Both the position numbers and the translations under genes were made by a program. The notes beneath the pieces were generated by a model. It saw only the letters and a list, made by a program, of their open reading frames with translations. It had not been told where the DNA came from and made no database searches. This document shows positions 341 to 20,631 of a stretch of 64,000 bases of DNA, one piece after another (position 1 is the stretch's first letter; each line of letters opens with the position of its first letter). Source of the stretch: Escherichia phage 4MG; the sequence record NC_022968.1. One strand, 5' to 3'.

Positions 341-3130
341 TTATCTTGTAAGGTTTCTGTACATAGCATACAGCCCAAATCCTCGTAACAGTTCTCCGGC
401 GTGGAAGCCAAAGAACATCCCGTTATCAGTATCTGCACGAGGAGCAACAGACCAGCTACCGTTCATCGGATGATTGGCAGTCAGAATGATGTAGTTCTCC
501 TGGATCAGACTGAAACAACGCTCTGCCACAATGTCGATGTTAGGAATACGAGTACGCATCCCAGCCATACCAAGGATGGAACAACCACCCATGAACAGCG
601 CCGACATATGGCTTGTAAAGTCATCCTCTGGTGCCAGAACAGTACCATCCGGGTTAAAGATGGTTGGTGTACGGCCCTCGTTGTTATCCTGGAACCATTT
701 CAGATAGTCAACCCAGTTCTTAGCCACTGTAAACAGCTTGCTAGGAATGGCTTCTCCACGTTGAGAGAGTTCATAGATACAACGACAAACACAGAAGAAC
801 GCACGAGCCTCATATCCGTCCCAAGCCTTCTCGTTCCAGTGTTTCATGGTGAAGGTATTTGGTTCCCCGTACTTACGGGCATCCCAGCGATCCCAGACAA
901 AGGCCTGAGCCATTGGTCCTGGCATAATAGGATGGAATGTGTTATAGAACCACATCTGGGAGTCATACAGGAAATCAATAGTGCTGTTCAATCTTGTCCA
1001 GTCAATGTTTTGACCTTTGAAGCAATACAGCGTAGGATATTGATACCCTGGGTATGGAAGACCACGCCAACCATCATAGAGCGCCGTGTTAGGGTCACTG
1101 ATGTTGGAGAACGGGATCAGTCCCGGAGTGTAGTACAGGCTGTTAAGTTTGTAGTCGATAATTGTACAATCACCAAGCTTCGCATTGTATGCATTATCAC
1201 CAGAAACCGTGATACGGAAGTACATGGTATAGTCGTCACCACCAGTGGAGGTGTACAACTCTGGGACAGCATTGATACAATACCAGTCGATCTTCGCACT
1301 AACACCGTCAACAGGGTCTGTGTCTGGTGCCAAGTTAATCTGTTTAAGATTATGGAGACTGATTTGGTTAGGCTTAGGATCTGTTTCTGGATGGTCTGGT
1401 TGGTAGCTGCTCAGAACGAAGTTGGAAGGACTCAACTGAAGTGTTGTCCATTCTCCGTTGGTTGCAGGAACCATAGCCCACCATCTCCACAGATTGTCAT
1501 CGGTGATTGTGATGTTAAAATTGTCAGCATAGGAACGGTATGTGAATGCTGAAAGGTCAGCAGTTTCAGTATCTGTCAGCCAGAAACCGATTGTGCAACC
1601 ACCATCCGCATCGGTCACAAGCGTACATGCTTGGTCATTGATTCGCCCAAGAATACCAGTCTGGTACTGGAAGTCAATAACTGTGTTTGATCCCCAATCT
1701 ACAACGATACGTGGATCAGCTACAATGTAGCTACCACCACCGGGAGGTGTTAATCTCACAAAGTTGGACAGAGGGATATCCATAGAAACGATGGAGTCTG
1801 TACCGCGTGGAAGGCCACAACGATAGGTCACCCTACCAGTTTCTGATTTGGTCTTGTTAAGGTCTAGTTCTGGTCTGAACAACAACCCATTCCCTGCTTC
1901 ATCCTTTCCTGAGAACTGGACACGCAGTTTTGAAGTGCCGTCAACACGGAACCAAATAGCCTGCTGTTCAAGAGTTGTCTGTGCTGCCACGTTCTGACGA
2001 ATACCAATATATCCTTCTGCGTCACGAGAATACTGTGGAACGGCTGTTGAAGGATAGGAGTAGTCATAGCTGATCCCATCAGTGAACGGGATTGTAGCGA
2101 ACGTAGATTTACGGAAGAACTTATCGAAACGGTCAATGTCTGAATAGTTATCACAAACAATTAATGAAGACTGCCAGCAAAGCCAGTATTTTCTTTCCCC
2201 GGTGATCTGATACATAACATAGTTCGCATCACACCACCATGTTTCTGCGTCAGAAGCATTGTCCTGGAAACCCATTTCAATCGGTACGTTAACAGGTCGG
2301 TTGTGCCACATGGTGTTTCTACCCATCAGGTATCCACCGTGTTCAACAGGATTACAGGTCGCATAGTTGAACTTGTAATTTCCTGTGATTGTGGTATTCT
2401 TTAACTGAACTGTACCCCATTCAGCCTCAGGGAACCCTTCAGCGAGGATATTACCATCCCAGTCAACCTTACGACCAAGACGATCAATGATCCAGTCAAC
2501 ATCCCACTGAGAGCCATACTCATCCCAGTTGGTGCTTCCGTCAGGGTTCTCTTTGTAGACTGTTGCGTTAACAGAGTTCCAACCAAGGTTTCCGTCGAAG
2601 GCAAACCAAGCCTTGTCCAGATATTCCCCCCAGTGAGGCGCTCCGTGCGGGATCAACGTTTTACCATTTGTCCACGTCATAACGCTACCCTTGAAACCAC
2701 CGTGGGTTGGGTATCCATCATCTGTCAATGGGTAGTGGGCGAGGCGTGGCTCTTTTCCGTTAATGATCCAGTTAGGACGATAAACAGCAGGAGGATCTGG
2801 GATTGGCTGACCAGCAAAGAACCAGTCAATATATGCCTGCCAGTATGCCTCTGCAAGTTCCAAGTATTTTGGATCGTTGGATGCCAGGTAAGCATAAGCG
2901 CACCCAAGGATCAGCACTGACTGACCCTCGGTAGTTGCGTCACCATTCGGTTGAGCTTCCTGTGCTGTCCAGTTGATGAAGTGGCGGTTGTTAGCCAAAA
3001 CATTTTGCAAGTTCAGAATGTAGTGCTGAACCGTAGGATCGATTGTCTCTCCGGTGTTTCTCTGAAGAAACTGAATGTGTCCGTCGATCAACTGAAACAC
3101 ATTATCAATGTTGTGGCTTAACTTTGCCAT
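341..3130 (-). CDS. tail fiber / tailspike protein (929 aa), possible carbohydrate-active C-terminal domain
   Basis: long ORF in tail module next to baseplate genes; size and W/Y/G-rich composition typical of receptor-binding proteins; enzymatic role is inference. Confidence 0.6.
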   Translation of the reverse strand: MAKLSHNIDNVFQLIDGHIQFLQRNTGETIDPTVQHYILNLQNVLANNRHFINWTAQEAQPNGDATTEGQSVLILGCAYAYLASNDPKYLELAEAYWQAYIDWFFAGQPIPDPPAVYRPNWIINGKEPRLAHYPLTDDGYPTHGGFKGSVMTWTNGKTLIPHGAPHWGEYLDKAWFAFDGNLGWNSVNATVYKENPDGSTNWDEYGSQWDVDWIIDRLGRKVDWDGNILAEGFPEAEWGTVQLKNTTITGNYKFNYATCNPVEHGGYLMGRNTMWHNRPVNVPIEMGFQDNASDAETWWCDANYVMYQITGERKYWLCWQSSLIVCDNYSDIDRFDKFFRKSTFATIPFTDGISYDYSYPSTAVPQYSRDAEGYIGIRQNVAAQTTLEQQAIWFRVDGTSKLRVQFSGKDEAGNGLLFRPELDLNKTKSETGRVTYRCGLPRGTDSIVSMDIPLSNFVRLTPPGGGSYIVADPRIVVDWGSNTVIDFQYQTGILGRINDQACTLVTDADGGCTIGFWLTDTETADLSAFTYRSYADNFNITITDDNLWRWWAMVPATNGEWTTLQLSPSNFVLSSYQPDHPETDPKPNQISLHNLKQINLAPDTDPVDGVSAKIDWYCINAVPELYTSTGGDDYTMYFRITVSGDNAYNAKLGDCTIIDYKLNSLYYTPGLIPFSNISDPNTALYDGWRGLPYPGYQYPTLYCFKGQNIDWTRLNSTIDFLYDSQMWFYNTFHPIMPGPMAQAFVWDRWDARKYGEPNTFTMKHWNEKAWDGYEARAFFCVCRCIYELSQRGEAIPSKLFTVAKNWVDYLKWFQDNNEGRTPTIFNPDGTVLAPEDDFTSHMSALFMGGCSILGMAGMRTRIPNIDIVAERCFSLIQENYIILTANHPMNGSWSVAPRADTDNGMFFGFHAGELLRGFGLYAMYRNLTR

Positions 3131-3804
3131 TACTCAACTCCTGCCATAATGAGGGAGCCGAACCATGTGTTCCCTCCGTCATAAGTGACGAACTGGAAGA
3201 TGTCTCGTACCCCGGTTTTATATGAAAGAACTGGTTCTCGTCCATAGTTCCACTTGATGTTGCTAGGCCATGAAACAAGGTTGGCCCCTGTCCCCTGAGT
3301 TAAAGATAACTGGAAGGTTTGGGAAATTCCCTGAGCGGTAGATGGGTTGGTGATACCGACCACACACTGCCCTGATGTCAGGTTAGCAAGGAAGGTATCT
3401 CCAAGTGTCAGGTTGCAGGTTGCAGTCCCCTGGACGTTACCCAGATTAACAACCTTACCTGTAGAACTTCCACCACCGCTTGCACCAAACTCCTGCCAAG
3501 CGTTAGAACTGATACCCCCGGTTGTCGCCGGGGATGAAGACATTGGAATTGTCTTTGGATAAGTACCGTTCCATGTGTAATATTTACCATCAGTTGCGAA
3601 GAAGGCGAGATCCTTTTTGGATTCAAGATATCCTCCCTCAGCAAAGAAAACCACTCTTGTCAAGCTCATCTTGGAAACGATTGTGTCCAAAGAGGCCTTT
3701 CTGGTAGTATCTGACTGATCAGTAACAACAAAATCGCCACCTGCAACGGTGACGGCAGTTGGAAGGTCAGAGACCTTCACTGTTGGAAATGCAACATCTG
3801 CCAT
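3130..3804 (-). CDS. tail fiber-associated protein (224 aa)
   Basis: start overlaps stop of upstream gene; N-terminal motif FPTVKVSDLPTA..GDFVVTDQSD shared with partial CDS at 1..331. Confidence 0.5.
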   Translation of the reverse strand: MADVAFPTVKVSDLPTAVTVAGGDFVVTDQSDTTRKASLDTIVSKMSLTRVVFFAEGGYLESKKDLAFFATDGKYYTWNGTYPKTIPMSSSPATTGGISSNAWQEFGASGGGSSTGKVVNLGNVQGTATCNLTLGDTFLANLTSGQCVVGITNPSTAQGISQTFQLSLTQGTGANLVSWPSNIKWNYGREPVLSYKTGVRDIFQFVTYDGGNTWFGSLIMAGVE

Positions 3805-3814
3805 TATTTACCCC

Positions 3815-4432
3815 TTAGTGGTTACGGTTGATGGACTTACCATCTTCGGTGGTGATGACATTACTCTTGTCATCCATCAGGCTACCGACAGGAATTGGGT
3901 TATCAATATCTGTACCAGCCCAGGTGTTCCACCATGTAGCATCGCCAGTGCGAGGCAGACGGAAGTTGATCAGATAGTAGAGCTTGTTAGCCCACGTAAT
4001 CCAACCATCATCGTCACAAAGAACCGTTGCACCTTCATCAGGGATTGGGTAATAATACTCATCCTGACCAACGAAAGCAAGTCGTACAACCTCTTGTTCT
4101 TTGGTGGTCACTTCGAAGAAGGCCTGATAACTACGTGTGGTCCGATCCATTGAAGAGTGGAACGAAGTGATCTCAAGCACATCAGGCTCAAGTCGGGTAA
4201 CTTCCTTGATCTTATTGTCAAGGACTGTTTTCATTACCTTCTTGCTCAGATATGTTCGGTATGGGAAACCAAAGGTTTCATCAAAATACCAGTTGCCAGC
4301 CCAGATATTAAAACGTAGCCACAATCTCTGACGGAGGCTTGTCTGGTTTGACTCAATGATCTGGAGACCCGTGGAGACATCAAGGTCTCCAGTAACAGGG
4401 TCCATAAGAAGGTCAGAATAAAGAGTAGCCAT
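3815..4432 (-). CDS. putative baseplate protein (205 aa)
   Basis: ORF in tight minus-strand operon between tape measure and fibers; function by position only. Confidence 0.4.
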   Translation of the reverse strand: MATLYSDLLMDPVTGDLDVSTGLQIIESNQTSLRQRLWLRFNIWAGNWYFDETFGFPYRTYLSKKVMKTVLDNKIKEVTRLEPDVLEITSFHSSMDRTTRSYQAFFEVTTKEQEVVRLAFVGQDEYYYPIPDEGATVLCDDDGWITWANKLYYLINFRLPRTGDATWWNTWAGTDIDNPIPVGSLMDDKSNVITTEDGKSINRNH

Positions 4433-4441
4433 TTATTCCCC

Positions 4442-5143
4442 TTATGCGTTTGGTGCGGCGGTGTTGCTCTGACCTGAGCCGTCCGTCCAAGTGTAGTGGT
4501 GGGTGTGGCGCATGAAGTAATCATAAAAGTCATTCATGTTGACACCACGGGCGGTGATCAGGTTTCCATCAGGTGTGATCTTTGCCCCGTTCATTTCAAT
4601 ATTCCCGTCAGTTTTCGCTGTCAAGGTTGCTGCTCCGTTAGTGAACTGCATCTGACCAGACTTATCCACCTTGAAAGTACCAACAGGCCCTGTTAAAGTA
4701 AAAGTCCCATCCGGGGTCATCGAGAAGTGAACCGTGTCATTCCACAACTCGACGTTATCAGGGTCGATTGTCATGGCGTTCCCATCACTATGCACACCAA
4801 TGATTGACCAACCAGGAAATAGTCCATGAGTTGTCGTATCGTTAGCATCACCCTCATTACGTTCGGAGAATGAAAGTCCAACCACGTCACCAGGCTTCAC
4901 AGGAAGCGTCAGGCGAGCTTTTCCACCGTTAGCTGAAGGCATGGAAAGGGGGACATCAAAAACCGCAGGATAAGCGTCTACGGTGCCATCATCGAAGTTT
5001 GTAGATGCAAGGGGTTGTACGGTTGCAGAAGGGATGCTGTAATCAACATCAACAACCCTTGCTCTTAGCCCGGTGTGGATATCACGAGCTTGACGGGCGA
5101 ACCACTGGTTCAAGGCAGCATCCATACGTTGAATTGATGCCAT
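4442..5143 (-). CDS. putative baseplate spike/tail protein (233 aa)
   Basis: ORF in baseplate block; C-terminal His-rich motif HTHHYTWTDG; assignment by position. Confidence 0.4.
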   Translation of the reverse strand: MASIQRMDAALNQWFARQARDIHTGLRARVVDVDYSIPSATVQPLASTNFDDGTVDAYPAVFDVPLSMPSANGGKARLTLPVKPGDVVGLSFSERNEGDANDTTTHGLFPGWSIIGVHSDGNAMTIDPDNVELWNDTVHFSMTPDGTFTLTGPVGTFKVDKSGQMQFTNGAATLTAKTDGNIEMNGAKITPDGNLITARGVNMNDFYDYFMRHTHHYTWTDGSGQSNTAAPNA

Positions 5144-6132
5144 TATTCCTCCACAATGCCACCACGGGTTTCTGCAAGTCCGATCTCAGACACCCAATCG
5201 CCACCTTCAAGTTGGCCTTTGTGAGTAAGATAAACTACCTTGTAGAAGCCTGTGTATTTCTGGCTTTTTAGATAAATTGTGCTTTCTGGGATGATCGCAC
5301 CGTTAAGTTCTGTAACAACAACAAGACCTGCGTCCTCTTTGATTTCAGCACGACTTGGACCTTTATTGGTCTTCGGCTTACTTTTAGACTTCTTCTTTTT
5401 CTCAAGGCGGCGTTTTGCAGGCTCTGGGTTTTGCGGGGTTGGTGAATCATGCATCCCAGATTCAGCACTGATCTCAAACACCGCATTGCGGAATCTCTTG
5501 CCCTGTGTAGTCCAGTACACAGCACCGTCCTGAACACTAAAGGTTGATCCGGTGTTTTTGGCAAGGCGTTCGAGATTGTTTGCAGCGTTACCAGTAAATG
5601 CCATAGACTGCTGAAGGGTCTGGTTACCGAACTTAACCACCTTACCAATAGGTAGTTTAAGGTCTGAAACAAGGTCATTAAGAACCGTATCCAGCGGTGT
5701 CCCCTTCTTGTAAGAACGGGCAGTCTTTGCTGTCATGATGTTGGTTGTTGCATCACCCAAGATCATTTTTGTTTGACGAGTATGACCATCCCACTTATCC
5801 TGAACAAACTCTACAGTCCCGGAGAAGATTGTCTGGTTTTCACCATCGAACCCTGCCTCCAGAACAATAGCAATCGACTCACGCTGGTTAGCATCAAGAT
5901 AGCTTACCGTTTCATCAGACAGGTTGTAAAGGGTGACATACCCTTTGTTAGGGTCTTTTGAGTTATCTTTCTTCACCTCGAACTCGATATTTGCTGCCCC
6001 TGTTTCGTTACTGACAACATAGGCATCCTTCGTGTTCTGGTTGGTGTAGTCAGAAATGTTGGTTGGCTTTTGCCCGATGTATACGGGCTTGCCAATAGTA
6101 AGTCTGAATGTTCGTGTTCTGTAAGAAGGCAT
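5143..6132 (-). CDS. putative baseplate protein (329 aa)
   Basis: ORF with start overlapping upstream stop; position downstream of tape measure. Confidence 0.4.
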   Translation of the reverse strand: MPSYRTRTFRLTIGKPVYIGQKPTNISDYTNQNTKDAYVVSNETGAANIEFEVKKDNSKDPNKGYVTLYNLSDETVSYLDANQRESIAIVLEAGFDGENQTIFSGTVEFVQDKWDGHTRQTKMILGDATTNIMTAKTARSYKKGTPLDTVLNDLVSDLKLPIGKVVKFGNQTLQQSMAFTGNAANNLERLAKNTGSTFSVQDGAVYWTTQGKRFRNAVFEISAESGMHDSPTPQNPEPAKRRLEKKKKSKSKPKTNKGPSRAEIKEDAGLVVVTELNGAIIPESTIYLKSQKYTGFYKVVYLTHKGQLEGGDWVSEIGLAETRGGIVEE

Positions 6133-7438: not shown

Positions 7439-9832
7439 TTATTGAGGAACACCAAGGATTAGGTTGATGTTACCCATGTTCGCAGCTTCAATCTGCTGGT
7501 CGATCATGTTCTTCATTTCGCCTGCGTCGATTTTGATCGTGATCTCACCGCTCACAGGTTCAGTTGGAATCACCATCGGAGGTGTTGCAGCCCCGGCTGG
7601 TCCAGGAACCATTCCATTCTGGTTCAGATAATCAAGTCTGCGCTGGTCAGTCATTGATCTCTGGCCTGTAATGAAGTCCCAAGCCTGTCCCATCCAAGAG
7701 TTTTTCTTCAGGTTACCACCTGCCGTGGTTTCAGTTCCATAAGTCTTATCGCTGTATTCCTGAGCAGAGTCGAAGACGTAATCTCCCAACAGCATACTCT
7801 CACCAGCGATCAGTGCAAACAAACCACCCTTACGTGCAAGCTTATTGCCAAGGCTTAATCCCTTGCCTTTACCCTTCTTCTTGCCCGGACCATCCTCTTC
7901 ACCACCGCCACCATTTCCAACACCAAAGATATCAGAGATAACCTTCAGTGCAGTGGAGAGACCAGCGATCTTAGTCAGGATGTTAAAGACACGAATAAGT
8001 GCAGAAGCGAAGAACAGAGCACCTACGCCCCAGCCTACCCATTTCCATGCAGAGGAAAGCTCTTCACCGTTCTTACGGAAGATCGGGATATAACGCTCCA
8101 TGATGCCTTGGATCAGGACAAAGGTGTTGTAGACAGTATAGACCATCTCCATAAACCCGGCTGTGAATCCAGCAAAGAATTGACCAAGATTTTGCGCAAG
8201 GGGACCGTTGGAGTCAAGAATTTTTGCGAGTTCGTTAAACGCGCTAGTTAATTCTTCACCAAAGCCACTCTGGAATACCTTGTTCTGGAAGTCCATCCAT
8301 GTTAATGTCAGACGCTGCATTGCAACACGGTTACCTTGCAGGGCTTTCTGAAGCGCACCACCCTTGTTTGCTGCCTCTGAGTAATACTTGGCAACGAATG
8401 GCAAGATTTTCGCAGCCTTCAGTTCACCCTTCTGCATCATGTCCATCATCTTGGTTACATCAATGGTGGAATCACCAAAAGCTTCCTGCGTTGCTTTGAG
8501 GAATACCTGTAGAGAACCAGGAATACCTTCCGCAAGCTGTTGCTTAAGTTCTTCAGCCATGATCTGACCTTTACCCATCATCTGTTGGATCGCAGTAATA
8601 CCACGTTGGTATTTAACTGGGTCAACCTGGAGGGCTGTTGAATATTCAGAGAAGGACTTGAATAGCTCATCGTTTTGTGATTTACTAAGAACACCGTTAG
8701 CGGCAATAGCCATTTGGGTGTAACCCTGTGCAGCAACTTTCAGGTCAAGACCTAAACGGTAGGACTGATCACGAACAAATTTCAGACGCTTACCTGCCTC
8801 TGCGGAGTCATCAGAAACCATCAGCATGGTTGCTTCCATACCCTGGAAGAACTGACCTGTTCTTACCACGCTTGCAGCAGCGTTGAATGCACCGTATGCA
8901 GCAGTTACACTCACCAACGTGCTACGCAGGTTCTTCAGCCCATCAGTCAAGGACAGGGTGTTCATGTTTGCTTTACGAAGTCCGGTCTCCATTGCAGCAA
9001 GTTCAGCACGGAAGTTTGAAGACTTCATGGTGTTGCTGTCAAGGAATCTTTCTTTCAGGGAGTCGAAACCCTTAAGTTTGGTTGCGTAGTTGTCACCATA
9101 TTTTGCACGAAGACGTACAGAGGCGTTGGCTACAGTTGATTCTTTACCTGCAAGATAACGAGAGTAACGAAGGTCTTCTGCCTCTTGTTTCTTACGGGCT
9201 TGTTCACGAGCACGAAGTTGCTCTCTGGATGCTTTCTGCTGTTGGCGTTGAACCTGCTGTTGCATTGCACGGTTTTGACGTGCAATCAGTGCCGGATCAG
9301 ATGCAGTACCACTACCAACCATGCCTGAAGCATTCCCTGATTTAGAACGGCGAGCCAGTTCCTCTTGCAGAGCAGCTTGACGTGCAGCAGAGATAGCGGG
9401 GTTTGTACCATAACCACCACCCGTTTTTTCCATTTGACGTAGACGTGCTTTCAGTCCATTATAGTCAGCTTGGGATTCAGGTGAACGTTTGGATGTCAGT
9501 TGAGCAACAGCTTGTTTTCTACGTGCTCTCTGGATCTTGTCAATTGCTTCACGAGCACGAGCCTCTTTCTTCGCCATAGCAATGTTATGGGCTGTGGTCT
9601 TTGCTTGTTCAGCACGTTCAGTTTGTTGCAGTCTTTTGTTGACAAGGCGAGCCTGCATTGCAGAACGCTTCAATGCTGCCGCTGGGTCTGACTTGCTGGC
9701 AGAGAATGCCTTACCAGCTTTTTCCCACTCAGTTTTCAAAGACTTCACAGCTTTCATGGCACGACCGAAGGAGGTCTTGTCCACGTCCCATGTGACTTTG
9801 TTGACTGTCTGGGTTACAATAATGTTCGCCAT
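7439..9832 (-). CDS. tail tape measure protein (797 aa)
   Basis: long A/Q/K/R-rich coiled-coil protein with Gly-rich segment, located after tail tube/chaperone genes. Confidence 0.7.
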   Translation of the reverse strand: MANIIVTQTVNKVTWDVDKTSFGRAMKAVKSLKTEWEKAGKAFSASKSDPAAALKRSAMQARLVNKRLQQTERAEQAKTTAHNIAMAKKEARAREAIDKIQRARRKQAVAQLTSKRSPESQADYNGLKARLRQMEKTGGGYGTNPAISAARQAALQEELARRSKSGNASGMVGSGTASDPALIARQNRAMQQQVQRQQQKASREQLRAREQARKKQEAEDLRYSRYLAGKESTVANASVRLRAKYGDNYATKLKGFDSLKERFLDSNTMKSSNFRAELAAMETGLRKANMNTLSLTDGLKNLRSTLVSVTAAYGAFNAAASVVRTGQFFQGMEATMLMVSDDSAEAGKRLKFVRDQSYRLGLDLKVAAQGYTQMAIAANGVLSKSQNDELFKSFSEYSTALQVDPVKYQRGITAIQQMMGKGQIMAEELKQQLAEGIPGSLQVFLKATQEAFGDSTIDVTKMMDMMQKGELKAAKILPFVAKYYSEAANKGGALQKALQGNRVAMQRLTLTWMDFQNKVFQSGFGEELTSAFNELAKILDSNGPLAQNLGQFFAGFTAGFMEMVYTVYNTFVLIQGIMERYIPIFRKNGEELSSAWKWVGWGVGALFFASALIRVFNILTKIAGLSTALKVISDIFGVGNGGGGEEDGPGKKKGKGKGLSLGNKLARKGGLFALIAGESMLLGDYVFDSAQEYSDKTYGTETTAGGNLKKNSWMGQAWDFITGQRSMTDQRRLDYLNQNGMVPGPAGAATPPMVIPTEPVSGEITIKIDAGEMKNMIDQQIEAANMGNINLILGVPQ

Positions 9833-14894: not shown

Positions 14895-15299
14895 ATGAAG
14901 AATACTAAGGGAATTGTTTCACTGGCTGTCGGTGCTGTTGTTGCGGCTTTGGTGACGACCACCTACATCATGAAGCATCCAAATCTGGACAACATGCAAG
15001 CCATCGAATCAAGCTGGCTGTCGAAGGAAGAGAAAACAGCAAGTATCCATCGACTTGTGCGTTTGTCTTGCGACCAATCATTTCGTAAGGCATTTAAGCC
15101 TGGGGTGTCTGTAGTGCAGACAGGGGAGATGGATGAGATCACAGAGCAAGCAGAAGGCTATCAATATCTCAACGATGTGGCAATCCTCTATGGAACGAAA
15201 GGTTACAAAGGGGCATACATCTGCACATACTATAAAGATGGTAAAGAGCCTATGGTTAATGTGAATATGGAAGCGGGTGTTAAACCACTCCTAAAATAA
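14895..15299 (+). CDS. membrane-anchored protein (134 aa), plus-strand insert in minus-strand structural block
   Basis: ATG with strong RBS; N-terminal hydrophobic segment IVSLAVGAVVAALVTTTYIM; own promoter and flanking hairpin. Confidence 0.55.
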   Translation: MKNTKGIVSLAVGAVVAALVTTTYIMKHPNLDNMQAIESSWLSKEEKTASIHRLVRLSCDQSFRKAFKPGVSVVQTGEMDEITEQAEGYQYLNDVAILYGTKGYKGAYICTYYKDGKEPMVNVNMEAGVKPLLK

Positions 15300-15300
15300 A

Positions 15301-15316
15301 AGGCCCCGAAGGGCCT
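15301..15316. terminator. bidirectional hairpin terminator
   Basis: AGGCCC-cgaa-GGGCCT, A-run upstream and T-rich downstream on minus strand; between convergent genes 14895..15299 and 15322..15621. Confidence 0.5.
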
Positions 15317-15321
15317 TATGA

Positions 15322-15621
15322 TTACGCCATAATACCAGCGGCTTTTAGTTTTGCCAGCAGAGCGTTAAAGTCAGTAACCAGACCAGCAGCATCAGTTGCT
15401 GTACTGTTTGCCTGAGTTGCAGCCATTTTAACGCCACCAACTACGCTTGTAGTCGCAGCCACAGGTGCGAAAGTGGTTGGTTTGCCTGTGATATCAGCCC
15501 AAGCTACAGAACCACCGCCACCAGATCCTGAGATAATATCAGCAACGCTGATTGATTGTCCAGTACCAAGGTCGATGAGTTTAGTTGCGTAAAGCAGACC
15601 AGCTACACCAGAAGTTGCCAT
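15322..15621 (-). CDS. hypothetical protein, Ala/Gly/Thr-rich (99 aa)
   Basis: ORF with RBS. Confidence 0.35.
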   Translation of the reverse strand: MATSGVAGLLYATKLIDLGTGQSISVADIISGSGGGGSVAWADITGKPTTFAPVAATTSVVGGVKMAATQANSTATDAAGLVTDFNALLAKLKAAGIMA

Positions 15622-15634
15622 ATTTTATTTCTCC

Positions 15635-16279
15635 TTATAGGAATGAGTCGGGTAATGCAGGGATTGTTGCGATTGTGGAAGCTTGTTCCACTTGGTCAAG
15701 GTAAGACCAATAAGACTTCATCATTTCATACTGAGCACGAGAAACCTGTGTTACAAGGTCTTTCATTTCTGCATGGGTGAAGTCAGATTTGTATCCATCA
15801 AGGAATCGGAATGGGTAGACTTCTGAGGACTGATCCCCGTCTGCTTCCAGAACCGACTTAATGGAGAGAAGAGTCGCAAGGTCGAAGCTTTTAACTCTAA
15901 CTTTGTACTCAACATTGTCAACCGGATAAGGAATCCCGATATCAAGATCGCGAGATAGAATATTTTGAGCCGCAGCCTTGTAACTCTGCTTGGCAGATTC
16001 AAGGTTTGCTGCAATTTCTTCTGGCGTAAAATCTCTTGAGTTCCACGTCTGTTCCCATTGCTGAGTTTGGTCGTTGAAATGTGGAGCACCCTCAGTTACC
16101 ACATCACCAGTCGGAGGTGTGACAGGGATTACCGGAAAGTAGCCAAACTCAACAAGGTTCTCAGAATAAATCCAAGTACCGATGCTCACGTTAGGATTGT
16201 CTGCTCTGAAGTCAGCCAAGTAAACCGGATATCTCCCATCAGAAGACCTGATCATGGGTGTGTATGAATATACTACCAT
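15635..16279 (-). CDS. hypothetical tail fiber-associated protein (214 aa)
   Basis: ORF immediately downstream of collagen-like fiber gene, RBS AAGGAGAG. Confidence 0.4.
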   Translation of the reverse strand: MVVYSYTPMIRSSDGRYPVYLADFRADNPNVSIGTWIYSENLVEFGYFPVIPVTPPTGDVVTEGAPHFNDQTQQWEQTWNSRDFTPEEIAANLESAKQSYKAAAQNILSRDLDIGIPYPVDNVEYKVRVKSFDLATLLSIKSVLEADGDQSSEVYPFRFLDGYKSDFTHAEMKDLVTQVSRAQYEMMKSYWSYLDQVEQASTIATIPALPDSFL

Positions 16280-16295: not shown

Positions 16296-16315
16296 GGGGC
16301 CGAAGCCCCTTTATT
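16296..16315. terminator. intergenic hairpin (GGGGC-cgaa-GCCCC) with T-run on plus strand
   Basis: stem-loop directly after stop of fiber gene. Confidence 0.35.
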
Positions 16316-18941
16316 AGTTGACAGTAAGAGAGGTTGTACCTGTCAGGTTTGTACCATCCCAAAGGATCGTAACAACTGTGCGGGTAGTTCCCAAAGTAAC
16401 CGCCGTACCGTTTGACCATGCTAAGTTTCCAGGCCACGTCAGTGACGCACCAGAACCTGTGAACACGATAACGATTGTCATTGCCCTGTTTGCAGGCAAA
16501 TTAGTAAAGCTCATGGTTTTGTTCGCTGTACCATCAACCTTGAAGACCTGAGACACGCTAACATCCATAGCTCCAGTTGAAGAAGTTACCAGAAGGTCGT
16601 AACGATCCAGTTTCTTCCATGCACTGTTTACACGAACGTAATAGCCGCTGTCAGCAGGGGCTTCAAGAACTGGCACATCTACCCAACCAGAACTTGTACG
16701 CGCCTGTGGCGTTGTTGAGGAGGTATCGTAGACGTTACCACCACCCATGTATCCCAGAGAAGCCCATACCGTAGCAGAAGTCTTCTGGAAATACTCAAGG
16801 GTGCTTTTGTTGATGAAGTAGTCACCAACACGTCCATCAGCAGGCCCTGGGTTACGTGGGAAGTTCAACCAAAGCGTACCTTGGTCACCTTTCACACCCT
16901 GGATACCCTGAGTACCTTGTGGACCCTGAGGTCCAGTTGGTCCAGCAGGCCCCGTAGGTCCTACGAATCCACCAACGTTGATCCAGTCATTGTCTGTTAC
17001 ACTCCAAACCCACAGGTCTGTTCCGATGATCCAGCCGTCACCTTCAGTACCTGTTGCTGGTAGATCAGCTTCAGATGCTTTGGTTCCTAGAGGTTTAATA
17101 CCAGCGCCCTGGTCTCCTTTAGGTCCTTGTGGGCCTGTTGGTCCGGTAGGACCTGCATCACCCTTCGGACCCTGTGGTCCATCAACACCTTGGAGTCCTT
17201 GGATACCCTGGTCTCCCTGAGGTCCTCGCATTACACCCAAGTTGGCCCAGTCAGAACCTGTAAAGGCAAAGCCCTCCCCGGTATCTACTGTGGTGTAATA
17301 ATCCCCATGAGATGCCCCAACCGGAAGGTCTGCTTCTGTTGGTACTGTTCCAAGAGGGTTAAGCGGAACACCCATTGGACCCTCAGGCCCTTGAGCACCA
17401 TCAGCACCAGCAGGCCCTGTATCTCCGGTGTCACCTTTAGGACCCTGAGGTCCATCAACACCTTGTGGACCCTGTGGGCCTGTAGGCCCGGTATCACCAG
17501 TGTCACCTTTATCGCCCTTCGGACCTACATATGGACCAACGTTGATCCACTGTGCATCAGATTGACTCCAGACATACAGGTTTGGTACAATGATCCAAGC
17601 ATCACCAGATGTTCCTGTCGCAGGAAGTTCAGATGTGGCACCTTTCGTACCGAGAACGCGAGCACTGTAACCTGTTTCACCACGGTCGCCCTTCGGACCT
17701 ACTGGTCCTTGAGGTCCAACTGGTCCGGTAAGGCCCGTGTCGCCCTTATCTCCTTTCGGACCTACGGGTCCCTGGATACCCTGTGCGCCGTCATTTCCCT
17801 GAGGACCCTGAGGTCCTGTTGGTCCGGTTGGACCTTGATCGCCTTTCTGTCCCTGTGGACCCTGAGGACCAACGTCACCATCGTCGCCTTTTGGCCCCTG
17901 AACAGGACCGATATCTTCCCATGCACCGTCAGAAGTCCACACCCAAACATGATTATCTGTTTGAACAACCCAAGCATCAGCAACGGCGTTGCCGAAAGCA
18001 GGAAGATCTGCGGTGGTGGCTTTTGTACCTTTCAGTTTAACAATGGCGGCATCGTTACCTTTATCGCCCTTCGGACCCTGAGGTCCTTGTGCGCCAGTAA
18101 GCCCTTGGATACCTTGAACACCCTGATCGCCTTTCTCACCACGATCACCTTTGTCACCTTTAGGTCCTTGTGGCCCTGTGGCACCAGTCGCACCCTGAGG
18201 CCCTGTTGGACCTACCTGACCAACTGGTTGCCAACCGTCAGCAGCGCCAGTCCATACCCACATCTGTTCTTGGACGATATAAGTATCACCCTCAGTGTTT
18301 CCTTCTGTAGGCAGGAATGCTGTGTCTGTGAAAGAGCCTTTGATTACAAGACCGATACCGTCCTGCCCTTGTGGACCTGCGAAGTCTCCAAGGTCAACCC
18401 ATTGCTGGTTTACAACAGTCCAGTAGTGTGTTCCAATAACGTATGTGTCGCCTTCCTGCATGGTTGATGCAGGTGGGAGTTGGGAAGGGTCTCCCAGAAT
18501 ACCTTGGATGTAAATACCAACACCCGGTTCACCTTGCGGCCCCTGGTCACCCTTATCCCCCTTTTCACCAGGTGGGACATACAGCCCCTCTTCACCTGGA
18601 TCAGTAACCTCAACAAGGGTGTTTCCATCCTTACTTGAGATCGGAATAACGATTTGAGGAGGAGCAACATACAGCTTTCCACCCGCCAATACAAGCAGGT
18701 TGTCACTGATTGTGCTGACACCAACGGAAAGACCGTCAGCACCAGCCACAAGAGCATTTCCGGAAGCAGGATCTACAATAACAGTTGCCTTCAGTGGGGT
18801 AGTGGATGTACCATTACCGAGAAGTGTGACGGTGGTCGTATCTTCCGTATGGAATTGACCATCATCAACAAAGGTCTCACCTGCACCGCCCTCAGGAAGG
18901 ATCAGTTCAGCGTTGACGACCTTATCATTGTAATCTGCCAT
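16314..18941 (-). CDS. collagen-like tail fiber protein (875 aa)
   Basis: multiple Gly-X-Y runs ([42 protein letters not shown]) separated by non-collagen segments. Confidence 0.65.
16840..18580 (-). repeat. in-frame collagen-like GGN-CCN nucleotide repeats
   Basis: reiterated ggtcc/ggacc motifs encoding G-X-Y triplets. Confidence 0.6.
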
Positions 18942-18950
18942 TTTTACCCC

Positions 18951-19484
18951 TTATTTTGCAGGCTCTAGTTCTTCAAGAGCAGCCTTGAAGTCAGCCATCA
19001 TGTTTTCGAAAGATTTGTTTTTCGCAAGGGTGATACCTTTGGTTGCAGCAAGATCAGCAAGTTTATCTTTGCTTCCTTTCTTATCAGCTTCATCATTAAG
19101 GGCTTCTGCCTGAGCCAGAATAGCTTCATAGCTTGCAGATTTAACCTCAACAACCTCAGTCTTGACATCTTCAACCTTAGGCGCTACAGTCGCTTCTACT
19201 GCCTTACCGCGACGGTTAGGGTTTGGAAGAGCACTGTTGAAAAATACGATGTATGTACCCATACGCAGTGTGGAATGTTCAGCATCAACATCCAGTCCGG
19301 AGATCTCTGCAAGAGCTTTGAAGAAGTCAACGGAGTTGCGGAAAGCTTTGTGCTCTTTTCCAACACAGAATCCATTCAGAGGAAGACGTGCTGATACCCC
19401 AACATTCAGGTCAGGAGCATAAGTGCCGAAGAATTTGAACAGTTCTACTTTGTTCGGGAAAATACGATAGTTTTGATTAGCCAT
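18951..19484 (-). CDS. hypothetical structural protein (177 aa)
   Basis: ATG at 19484 with RBS GGAGA; downstream of major capsid gene. Confidence 0.4.
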   Translation of the reverse strand: MANQNYRIFPNKVELFKFFGTYAPDLNVGVSARLPLNGFCVGKEHKAFRNSVDFFKALAEISGLDVDAEHSTLRMGTYIVFFNSALPNPNRRGKAVEATVAPKVEDVKTEVVEVKSASYEAILAQAEALNDEADKKGSKDKLADLAATKGITLAKNKSFENMMADFKAALEELEPAK

Positions 19485-19617
19485 AAAATCTCCATTGGTT
19501 ACCTTAGTAAAAACCACTTGACACCAGTCATGAAGTGGCTATTATTAAGGTGACGAAAATAAAAAAGGGAGAGGTGAATAATCACCTCCCCCTCTTAGAG
19601 GTAGCAGTTACGCTATC

Positions 19618-20631
19618 TTATGCGAAAGTACCAGTAGAGCGAACAACCAGTTCCGGACGGGTGTTAACAGTCAGGAAGGAAGTTTCGGACTCAACCTTTT
19701 CTTCGCGCAGGTATGCAGAAGATTTGTACCACAGGTACAGTTCTTGTGCAGGAGTGTTCGCGTCACGAACGTCATCTGCTGGTGCATAGTGAATCTGGAA
19801 CATGTCGTCGATTCCTTGCGGCAGAATGTAAGCTTCACCATCAGGGATGTAGTTGGAGATATCCTCGATGTAAGTTACGTTCTTGTGAACAAACATACGG
19901 TTGTTGGCGTTTTCCTGCCCTTGACCCAGACGACGACGAAGCGGCTCTTGAGTAGAAGAGTAGTATTGGTAAGCGTTCATTACCAGCGGATGAGCGATCA
20001 GCGCTGAGAACCACTTACGAGAAGCCAGAACTACGATGTTGTAGTTGTTACCGTTGTCACCAGCATTGTCGATGATGTACGCACGAGCGTCAGCTTCGAT
20101 GATGTCGGTTGGGTCGGTTGCTACATCGGTGAAGTCGATGTTAGCTGTGTGCTGAGTAACACCCCACTCGGTGAAGTAGTTGTACTGAGCAGTTGGGTCC
20201 TGTGGTGCCCAGGATTTACCCATGATCGCCTGAAGCATTGCTTTTTCTTTCAGTTGTTCATGAGAGATGCGGATACGACGAACCACACGAGCAACAACAT
20301 CTTCTACAGTCTTCGGAGCGTCAGCAGTAAAATACTTACGGAAGTTCTGTACGTCTGCCGCTGTGATCTGACGATCCAGTGGGAAGAACGGAATGTTGAA
20401 GTTTCTCAGTTGGGCCTTTTCAGTACCAACGTAGTTACGTTCACCCTGACGACGACGAGCCGGGAAGTCAGTTACAACTTCATCAACACGTTCGATCTGA
20501 GCGATAGTCGTTACACCGTGGTACGCTGTGAACAGGTCCATATTGGTGATCAGACGGTACTGACGTGGTACGATTTCCAGAGTCGCGCCGAGATCGACGA
20601 TCTGGAAGTCATTAGTGCGTACTACTGCCAT
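19618..20631 (-). CDS. major capsid protein, lambda gpE-like (337 aa)
   Basis: length and motifs (DPTDIIEADARAYII, YIPDGEAYILPQG) resemble lambda E family by recall; follows decoration gene. Confidence 0.75.
   Translation of the reverse strand: MAVVRTNDFQIVDLGATLEIVPRQYRLITNMDLFTAYHGVTTIAQIERVDEVVTDFPARRRQGERNYVGTEKAQLRNFNIPFFPLDRQITAADVQNFRKYFTADAPKTVEDVVARVVRRIRISHEQLKEKAMLQAIMGKSWAPQDPTAQYNYFTEWGVTQHTANIDFTDVATDPTDIIEADARAYIIDNAGDNGNNYNIVVLASRKWFSALIAHPLVMNAYQYYSSTQEPLRRRLGQGQENANNRMFVHKNVTYIEDISNYIPDGEAYILPQGIDDMFQIHYAPADDVRDANTPAQELYLWYKSSAYLREEKVESETSFLTVNTRPELVVRSTGTFA

Follow-up and report, generated by a model that had tools for sequence, protein, structure and literature searches.

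We analysed a window of 64,000 nucleotides from Escherichia phage 4MG (NC_022968.1), a Seunavirus-type myovirus (Vequintavirinae) whose capsid protein shares 98.5% identity with its counterpart in Cronobacter phage GAP31. The gene under study (16314-18941, minus strand, ATG start) is an 875 amino acid (aa) coding sequence for what appears to be a segmented collagen-like virion fibre, and all parts of it described below are likewise on the minus strand. The initial annotation had read this open reading frame as a series of at least six interrupted Gly-X-Y blocks written in GGN-CCN DNA, and these points were borne out. We identified six Gly-X-Y runs of at least four triplets, with 94 triplets in total; shuffled versions of the protein (n=1000) held a mean of 3.6 triplets in such runs and a maximum of 21, with a longest run of at most 8. 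Pfam Collagen (PF01391) matched seven stretches of the protein (E = 9.4e-41, 137.8 bits, cut-off 27.2). As in collagen triple-helix proteins, the runs are uninterrupted and in frame, with 6-26 triplets each. Specifically, they are block 1 (aa 125-142, 18516-18569) with 6 triplets, block 2 (aa 241-297, 18051-18221) with 19, block 3 (aa 349-426, 17664-17897) with 26, block 4 (aa 473-526, 17364-17525) with 18, block 5 (aa 573-614, 17100-17225) with 14 and block 6 (aa 658-690, 16872-16970) with 11; in 818-aa variants of the protein, blocks 2 and 3 hold 10 and 17 triplets, respectively. A mini-block of three triplets, GPQGQDGIG, occupies aa 188-196. Mostly Pro or Asp is found at the X position (Pro in 41 of 94 triplets) and chiefly Gln, Lys and Thr at the Y position, the latter being typical of non-hydroxylated bacterial and phage collagens. 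Glycine is encoded by GGT (88 codons), GGA (40), GGC (21) and GGG (16), and the local G+C content is raised (0.518) and the GC skew negative because the GGN and CCN codons lie on the minus strand. The frame is kept in relative P0001, an 875-aa protein with 97% identity, and frame and architecture are the same in dozens of orthologues from independent genomes, which rules out a frame or assembly artefact. An open reading frame of 446 aa lies antisense to the collagen gene (17127-18467, plus strand); its translation is of low complexity and rich in Ser, Thr, Arg, Leu, Cys and Trp, and it seems to have arisen as a side effect of the GGN-rich collagen codons, whose complement is poor in stops, and not to be a gene.

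The segments between the collagen blocks had been regarded as globular inserts. Non-collagen segments do exist at these places, but they are not miscellaneous: they are seven copies of one module of about 45-50 aa, here termed M, which are 23-55% identical in pairwise comparison and did not match any Pfam family. In structure prediction of the inserts, AlphaFold2 (AF2) folded M1 and M2 (aa 143-240 including the mini-block between them, 18222-18515) into four-stranded beta units with a predicted local distance difference test score (pLDDT) of 72-90. Module M3 (aa 298-348, 17898-18050) is swapped for a 42% identical allele in relative P0003, M4 (aa 427-472, 17526-17663) is deleted in GAP31, and M5 (aa 527-572, 17226-17363) is followed by M6 (aa 615-657, 16971-17099, pLDDT 84-96), for which P0002, P0009, P0012 and GAP31 carry an alternative allele of 53-63% identity. 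M7 (aa 691-735, 16737-16871, pLDDT 92-94) is a conserved terminal variant of the module that ends in GGG. An AF2 model of aa 612-875 (pLDDT 85.8) consists of compact M units, two hairpins and a confidently predicted knob, and neither of the two AF2 models of the fibre contains a helix of four or more residues. The N-terminal domain (aa 1-124, 18570-18941) is the presumed virion anchor; its AF2 monomer model (pLDDT 26-49) is not informative. The overall order of the fibre is thus an N-terminal domain (aa 1-124), collagen of 6 triplets, M, 3 triplets, M, 19 triplets, M, 26 triplets, M, 18 triplets, M, 14 triplets, M, 11 triplets, M7, two foldon-like hairpins and the knob.

The two foldon-like beta-hairpins (aa 736-781, 16599-16736) were both present in the AF2 model. 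The first (aa ~736-758) is degenerate and the second (aa 758-782) shows the canonical foldon motif. Tandem hairpins of the form (D/E)AP.DG..YVR.dG.W..l occur throughout the family with 1 to 12 motif matches per protein, and the foldon-repeat stretch of relative P0052 reads DGRSYVRKDGEWVEL. The 4MG fibre alone did not match Fibritin_C (PF07921) in a search against Pfam; in relatives this family passed its cut-off and was located at the foldon positions just past the last module. A profile built from 58 hairpin repeats of the family (A2) matched the foldon of T4 fibritin (1RFO, E = 1.7e-8), as well as 1AVY and 1AA0 (about 1e-8 to 1e-7). It matched 565 foldon-containing sequences of the PDB, among them the 'collagen-like peptide' 1NAY and the collagen-foldon construct 9GFR. 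A putative non-collagen trimerisation domain is placed beside the collagen, C-terminal to block 6, in the form of the foldon-like hairpin. A relationship between M and the foldon was considered and rejected (hhalign probability 3%). The C-terminal knob (aa 782-875, 16317-16598) is a predicted beta-sandwich (pLDDT 92-98) of about 95 aa whose length is constant over the whole family and whose sequence had no match in Pfam or the PDB. Searches with a collagen-free query (aa 691-875) showed that the knob also caps many short proteins. One protein with such a domain is encoded by 4MG itself: a 'tail fiber protein' of 224 aa (phrog_7760), whose gene belongs to the baseplate cluster (3130-3804, minus strand), has a C-terminal domain homologous to the fibre knob (hhalign 86%, E = 5e-6, 88 columns), so that in this phage two otherwise dissimilar proteins carry one type of distal domain.

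The fibre matches phrog_3904, 'tail fiber protein' (E = 6e-291), and orthologues carry this label in PVP-SE1 (gp69/PVP-SE1_gp068), GAP31 (GAP31_203), EC152, phiTE (phiTE_215), CB7 (CB7_10) and others. In Seunavirus and Certrevirus the orthologues occupy the same locus with 43-89% protein identity and 585-1099 aa, and their module and triplet numbers vary. The arrangement of repeated M-collagen units followed by foldon and knob, with 4-15 modules, was also found in Certrevirus, other Vequintavirinae and jumbo phages of Erwinia, Ralstonia, Burkholderia and Pseudomonas. Run against 1.84 billion representatives, the collagen-free query retrieved 492 clusters at 50% identity with E <= 1e-3. At the DNA level the gene is only ~80-85% identical to its nearest relatives. 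Among close orthologues the N-terminal domain, M7 and the knob are most conserved (78-98%), and M3, M5 and M6 are mosaically replaced (42-63%). Even where the hosts are unrelated (Enterobacteria, Erwinia, Ralstonia, Burkholderia), the phages keep the knob, with 29-65% identity, and no evidence was seen for the suggestion of the initial annotation that the repeats could vary host range. An exchange of the C-terminus among relatives, as megablast coverage might indicate, was rejected, since the DNA there is below megablast detection and the protein is conserved. A conserved knob with a variable interior is the reverse of the usual tail fibre, which has a conserved anchor and a variable tip, and because of this reversal knob and foldon may rather serve assembly or a generic function. 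The collagen-like fibres of the Vequintavirinae ChuuTotoro (L010 8515-11013) and ABPH49 (L013 8536-11033) differ at the C-terminus, with one foldon-like hairpin and a different knob.

The proposal that fibre length varies held true as far as close relatives do differ (576-960 aa). Seunavirus fibres are 576/585, 815-818, 872-875, 918 or 960 aa long. In the 818-aa form the flanks are more than 90% identical and the stretch from block 2 through M3 to block 3 (19 and 26 triplets) is exchanged for a divergent cassette with 10 and 17 triplets around a different M3. The GAP31 fibre shows an in-frame deletion of aa 417-613, equivalent to two module-collagen units, a further deletion of aa 64-154 and the alternative M6. 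Fibre length and composition thus evolve through recombinational exchange and deletion of module-collagen cassettes between lineages. Slippage at tandem DNA repeats as the cause of length change was rejected, since the repeats are weak and the junctions are those of cassette replacement or deletion.

The fibre gene belongs to a block of four genes, encoding proteins of 188 aa, the fibre, 214 aa and 99 aa, that is located between the major capsid gene (19618-20631) and head-completion/neck genes. Its boundaries are marked by intrinsic terminators, upstream after the major capsid gene (19563-19596, minus strand; a counterpart is annotated in phiTE) and downstream after the 99-aa gene (15300-15317, minus strand; counterparts are annotated in PVP-SE1 and phiTE). 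Downstream of the block come the gene for the tape measure (7439-9832), those of baseplate hub and wedge type (about 3815-6132) and those for more tail proteins (341-3804). At the downstream boundary a gene on the other strand (14895-15317) runs towards the fibre block; it codes for a membrane protein of 134 aa (phrog_11434, classed as moron), and the hairpin at 15300-15317 lies between the two convergent genes. This arrangement is kept in PVP-SE1, GAP31, BIS47 and Av-05, and the PVP-SE1 annotation has terminators on both strands at the convergent junction.

Directly downstream of the fibre gene lies the gene for a 214-aa protein (15635-16279, minus strand), which we regard as the second half of a cassette and refer to as the partner. 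In GAP31, EC152, PVP-SE1, phiTE, Special G, RSF1 and L014, a 152-kb metagenomic phage, the fibre gene is likewise directly succeeded by the gene for a homologue of this protein (E = 7e-27 to 2e-44, with 8e-32 for Special G and 7e-27 for RSF1), and this order is shared by Seunavirus, Certrevirus, two jumbo-phage lineages and L014. Comparative synteny showed that the partner gene is absent wherever the fibre gene is absent; in Klebsiella phage BIS47, for example, the 177-aa and 99-aa genes have neither fibre nor partner between them. In L014 a family member with a Tail_spike_N anchor is encoded within a baseplate/tail-fibre cluster and is again followed by a partner homologue (35% identity, E = 2e-44). 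Because of L014 and the synteny data we consider fibre and partner a portable two-gene cassette whose anchor differs with location. According to the CB7 record, fibre (CB7_10), partner (CB7_11) and the next protein (CB7_12) were confirmed as virion proteins by tandem mass spectrometry (MS/MS), and the partner therefore stays in the particle. For the fibre family, virion membership is documented by MS/MS for the orthologue CB7_10 only. The partner evolves faster than core proteins of the particle: among Seunaviruses it is 72-86% identical, versus 96-98.5% for the capsid protein. ChuuTotoro and ABPH49 are without the 214-aa partner and have genes of 63, ~350 and ~340-350 aa instead, which suggests that partner and DRYD-type knob belong together.

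The other two genes of the block are not part of the cassette. The 188-aa protein (18951-19517, minus strand), encoded by the first gene, follows the capsid gene in Vequintavirinae with or without a fibre. It was considered as a fibre-specific partner and rejected, as it also occurs in BIS47, which has no fibre, in FFH2 (rV5-like) and in Avunavirus 19-1-2; its homologue CB7_9 was not MS-confirmed in virions. The listed GTG start of this open reading frame is probably too far upstream, since homologues and phrog_3259 align from residue 12 (MANQNY...), which would put the start at an ATG near 19484. The C-terminal ~50 aa match the PHROG 'minor head protein inhibitor of protease'. The 99-aa protein (15322-15621, minus strand), product of the final gene in the block, is head-fibre-like: its C-terminal tip matches Pfam Phage_head_fibr (PF11133, the tip of the phi29 head fibre, E = 9.5e-13). 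Pairwise BLAST between this protein and phiTE_217 was not significant (E = 0.026); the two are linked through the N-terminal ~40 aa only, via intermediates, with E-values that are optimistic owing to a database of 15 sequences. The slot after the partner is occupied in the compared loci L001-L003, L005, L007-L010, L013 and L016-L019 by hypervariable proteins of 84-527 aa which all have a common N-terminal motif of ~35-40 aa, including phiTE_217/CB7_12. Their C-termini are swapped, with a phi29 head-fibre-like tip in 4MG and short collagen-like stretches in CR9, F1M1E, ChuuTotoro and ABPH49, and phage A73 carries a collagen-rich 'Stf' of 527 aa in this slot. These slot proteins may be a family of capsid-anchored mini-fibres. 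In Avunavirus 19-1-2 (L008 4643-9053) and Av-05 (L009 5176-9234) the cassette is replaced by a 416-aa fibre with an N-terminus resembling the slot-protein anchor, a Tfa-like assembly protein and a fibre of 545-593 aa that shares the 4MG N-terminal domain. The post-capsid locus of the Vequintavirinae is, to judge from sequence comparison, a hotspot for fibre-gene exchange.

With respect to the site at which the fibre is mounted, we lean slightly towards the head or neck, to which we give an even chance. The fibre would then be a neck whisker similar to T4 fibritin, or a capsid-mounted spike or fibre like gp52 of the Pseudomonas phage Pa223, and would serve to increase encounters with, or lengthen the dwell on, cell surfaces, flagella or other matrices. 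The position of the gene between the capsid gene and the neck/head-completion genes argues for this, as does a transcription unit in common with the 99-aa protein, which combines the phi29 head-fibre tip with the N-terminal anchor of the phiTE 'Pagoda' protein. A cryo-electron microscopy study of phiTE assigned phiTE_217 by abundance as the 'Pagoda' decoration at the hexamer centres of the capsid. The conserved distal domain would also fit a generic adhesin. The T4 wac gene, which encodes fibritin, is located just before the neck genes gp13/gp14, comparable to the position of the 4MG fibre gene. Fibritin and the 4MG fibre share the C-terminal foldon motif EAP.DG..YVR.dG.W..L, placed after the fibrous part, and this homology to a neck whisker is a further point in favour. 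The two differ in the shaft, which is made of collagen and beta modules in 4MG and of a segmented alpha-helical coiled coil in fibritin, and in the duplication of the foldon (up to 12 motif matches in relatives) and the knob that follows it in 4MG; no similarity to the N-terminal neck-binding region of fibritin was detected in the fibre. Among known structures, the best Foldseek match of aa 612-875 was the Pa223 capsid spike (PDB 9NY6), which was matched over the full chain with probability 1.0; the template modelling (TM) scores are low (0.26-0.29) because the chains are extended. The Pa223 spike is a trimer built from an N-terminal arm that contacts the capsid, a body of beta structure and a tumour necrosis factor (TNF)-fold knob. 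It has no detectable sequence similarity to the 4MG fibre and differs from it in containing no collagen, in its length of only 295 aa and in its N-terminal attachment arm, which binds at the capsid 3-fold axes. In the phiTE capsid, the 3-fold positions are held by a Dec trimer.

Somewhat less probable, though a serious contender, is mounting at the tail or baseplate. Read as a classical baseplate-attached tail fibre, to which we assign the same somewhat lower probability, the protein would use its N-terminal domain to dock on the baseplate or a further tail fibre, with its distal end binding the receptor and setting the host range. The phrog_3904 match and the RefSeq labels agree with this; the labels are transferred annotation with no experiment behind them. 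The initial annotation had likewise spoken of a tail fibre, a designation that could not be upheld as such: the 'tail' label derives solely from PHROG and annotation transfer, the gene is located in a head-gene block and the best fold match is a capsid spike. The N-terminal domain weakly matches aa 91-167 of the baseplate-attached tail fibre of phage 7-7-1 (9rkv_M, E = 9e-5), a region of small spacer-type domains within its tail-binding module, and, weakly too, gp124 of Milano (E = 0.03). Some family relatives have Tail_spike_N in place of the 4MG-type N-terminal domain, and those so anchored are encoded in a baseplate/tail-fibre cluster. In Avunavirus a fibre that comes with a Tfa-type assembly protein occupies this locus. 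It is not otherwise related to the 4MG fibre, and its N-terminus is 55% identical (E = 7e-33) to the 4MG N-terminal domain; the resemblance stops at EEGLYVPP, exactly where the 4MG collagen starts. A fibre-type knob on the 224-aa protein of the baseplate cluster points in the same direction. Against a tail fibre stands the location of the gene, about 6 kb from the tape measure gene and more than 12 kb from the genes of the baseplate cluster, in a terminator-bounded block of head genes; a tail-fibre gene is expected within a tail, baseplate or fibre module, where the L014 relative with its other anchor is indeed found and the 4MG gene is not. The distal domain of a tail fibre should also be the most variable part and track the host, whereas here the knob and M7 are conserved across hosts (78-98% in close orthologues) and it is internal modules that vary (42-63% for M3, M5 and M6). 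Half of the N-terminal domain is moreover lost in GAP31. In GAP31_203 (L003 5999-7756) the in-frame deletion of 91 aa (aa 64-154) removes half of this domain, block 1 and the start of M1, so that either the first ~63 residues are enough for anchoring or the fibre is dispensable there. The phiTE structure bears on both possibilities. The orthologue is unplaced in it. The tail fibres that were modelled, long and short, are built differently, being of coiled-coil/immunoglobulin type and beta-helix type, and the main text of the paper contains no mention of collagen. Two features are without a model there, the 'Pagoda' density of the capsid and a 'third fibre', the latter a point in favour of a tail fibre.

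That the gene is mainly a contingency locus, in which the repeats would be a hotspot for slipped-strand, high-frequency switching of fibre length within a population, is very improbable: short repeated 12-mers are enriched (57 versus 28 +/- 9 in synonymous-codon shuffles) and block sizes differ by whole triplets among relatives, but the recombination-prone DNA repeats assumed at the outset turned out to be weak, with only 9-nucleotide arrays of 2-4 copies found by Tandem Repeats Finder, a longest exact repeat of 21 nucleotides (encoding GPKGDKG) that is at chance level (p = 0.12), collagen blocks just 60-74% identical to one another in DNA, and length differences that map to divergent cassette replacements or large deletions between lineages.

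Taken as a whole, we regard it as probable that the gene encodes a trimeric, segmented collagen-like virion fibre with an accessory role in adhesion that evolves cassette-wise. Three chains would associate with their register set at the C-terminal foldon and knob; such C-terminal nucleation is proposed because of the analogy with fibritin and with the engineered collagen-foldon fusions (1NAY, 9GFR), in which the foldon is likewise placed C-terminal to the collagen. The collagen helix would then zip from the C- to the N-terminus, as in the engineered (GPP)10-foldon. Each M module may act as a local trimer clamp and hinge that raises the effective chain concentration, which would let short non-hydroxylated blocks rich in GPQ, GPT and KGD triplets remain folded. 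The product would be a thin fibre resembling beads on a string of roughly 100 nm, given that 291 collagen residues with a rise of about 0.29 nm amount to about 83 nm, plus the globular parts. The N-terminal domain would decide where the fibre is mounted. The partner, which is kept together with the knob and stays in the virion, is probably an assembly factor or adhesin located at the tip. Most likely the whole is an accessory, reversible adhesion fibre rather than a primary receptor-binding tail fibre, and, more speculatively, the mosaic internal modules may carry the binding specificity. A more specific version of this picture is tentative and in its entirety rather unlikely. It would have the fibre as a head- or neck-mounted collagen whisker analogous to fibritin, in which the ~48-aa trimerisation module is a clamp and hinge convergently similar to collagen XV/XVIII, the internal modules, and not the tip, are exchangeable ligand-binders of a lateral multivalent adhesin and the knob carries the ~215-aa partner.

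Apart from fibritin, the engineered fusions and the Pa223 spike, the closest known systems include the trimerization domains of collagen XV/XVIII (multiplexin; 3N3F, 9BNB) and the side tail fibres of the EPclA type from E. coli prophages, which resemble the 4MG fibre in having phage Gly-X-Y segments flanked by non-collagen trimerising domains. The flanking domains of EPcl proteins are reportedly PfN, coiled-coil and PfC, in an account attributed to Ghosh et al. 2012, and SPP1 gp12 is said to be a 64-aa collagen-like capsid-binding protein; both are said to be without a periodic M module, foldon or knob. Annotations already exist for the gene family itself, and collagen-like fibres are known from other phages. 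In records and papers on the Seunavirus and Certrevirus orthologues we found no description of the M module, foldon, knob, partner cassette or localisation, and in the literature searched none of a natural collagen-foldon phage fibre. New in comparison with these sources are the periodic M module, a natural succession of collagen, foldon and knob, the fibre-partner cassette with exchangeable anchors and the mismatch with the features that define a tail fibre.

Transferred annotation has given the label 'tail fiber' to the entire family, which comprises about 500 clusters at 50% identity and includes members in therapeutic-candidate phages of Salmonella, Cronobacter and Enterobacter and in several jumbo phages. 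Host-range engineering on this gene could miss its target, because neither the gene module nor the variable tip expected of a tail fibre is found. The fibre appears to be a natural equivalent of the engineered collagen-foldon fusions that are used for triple-helix nucleation, and its periodic module of ~48 aa may show how a long non-hydroxylated collagen keeps its register, which could help in the design of recombinant collagen materials. For phiTE, the fibre block offers candidate genes for the unmodelled 'third fibre' and 'Pagoda' density. With regard to phage evolution, fibre and virion partner act as a portable cassette in which a swappable N-terminal anchor sets the mounting point.

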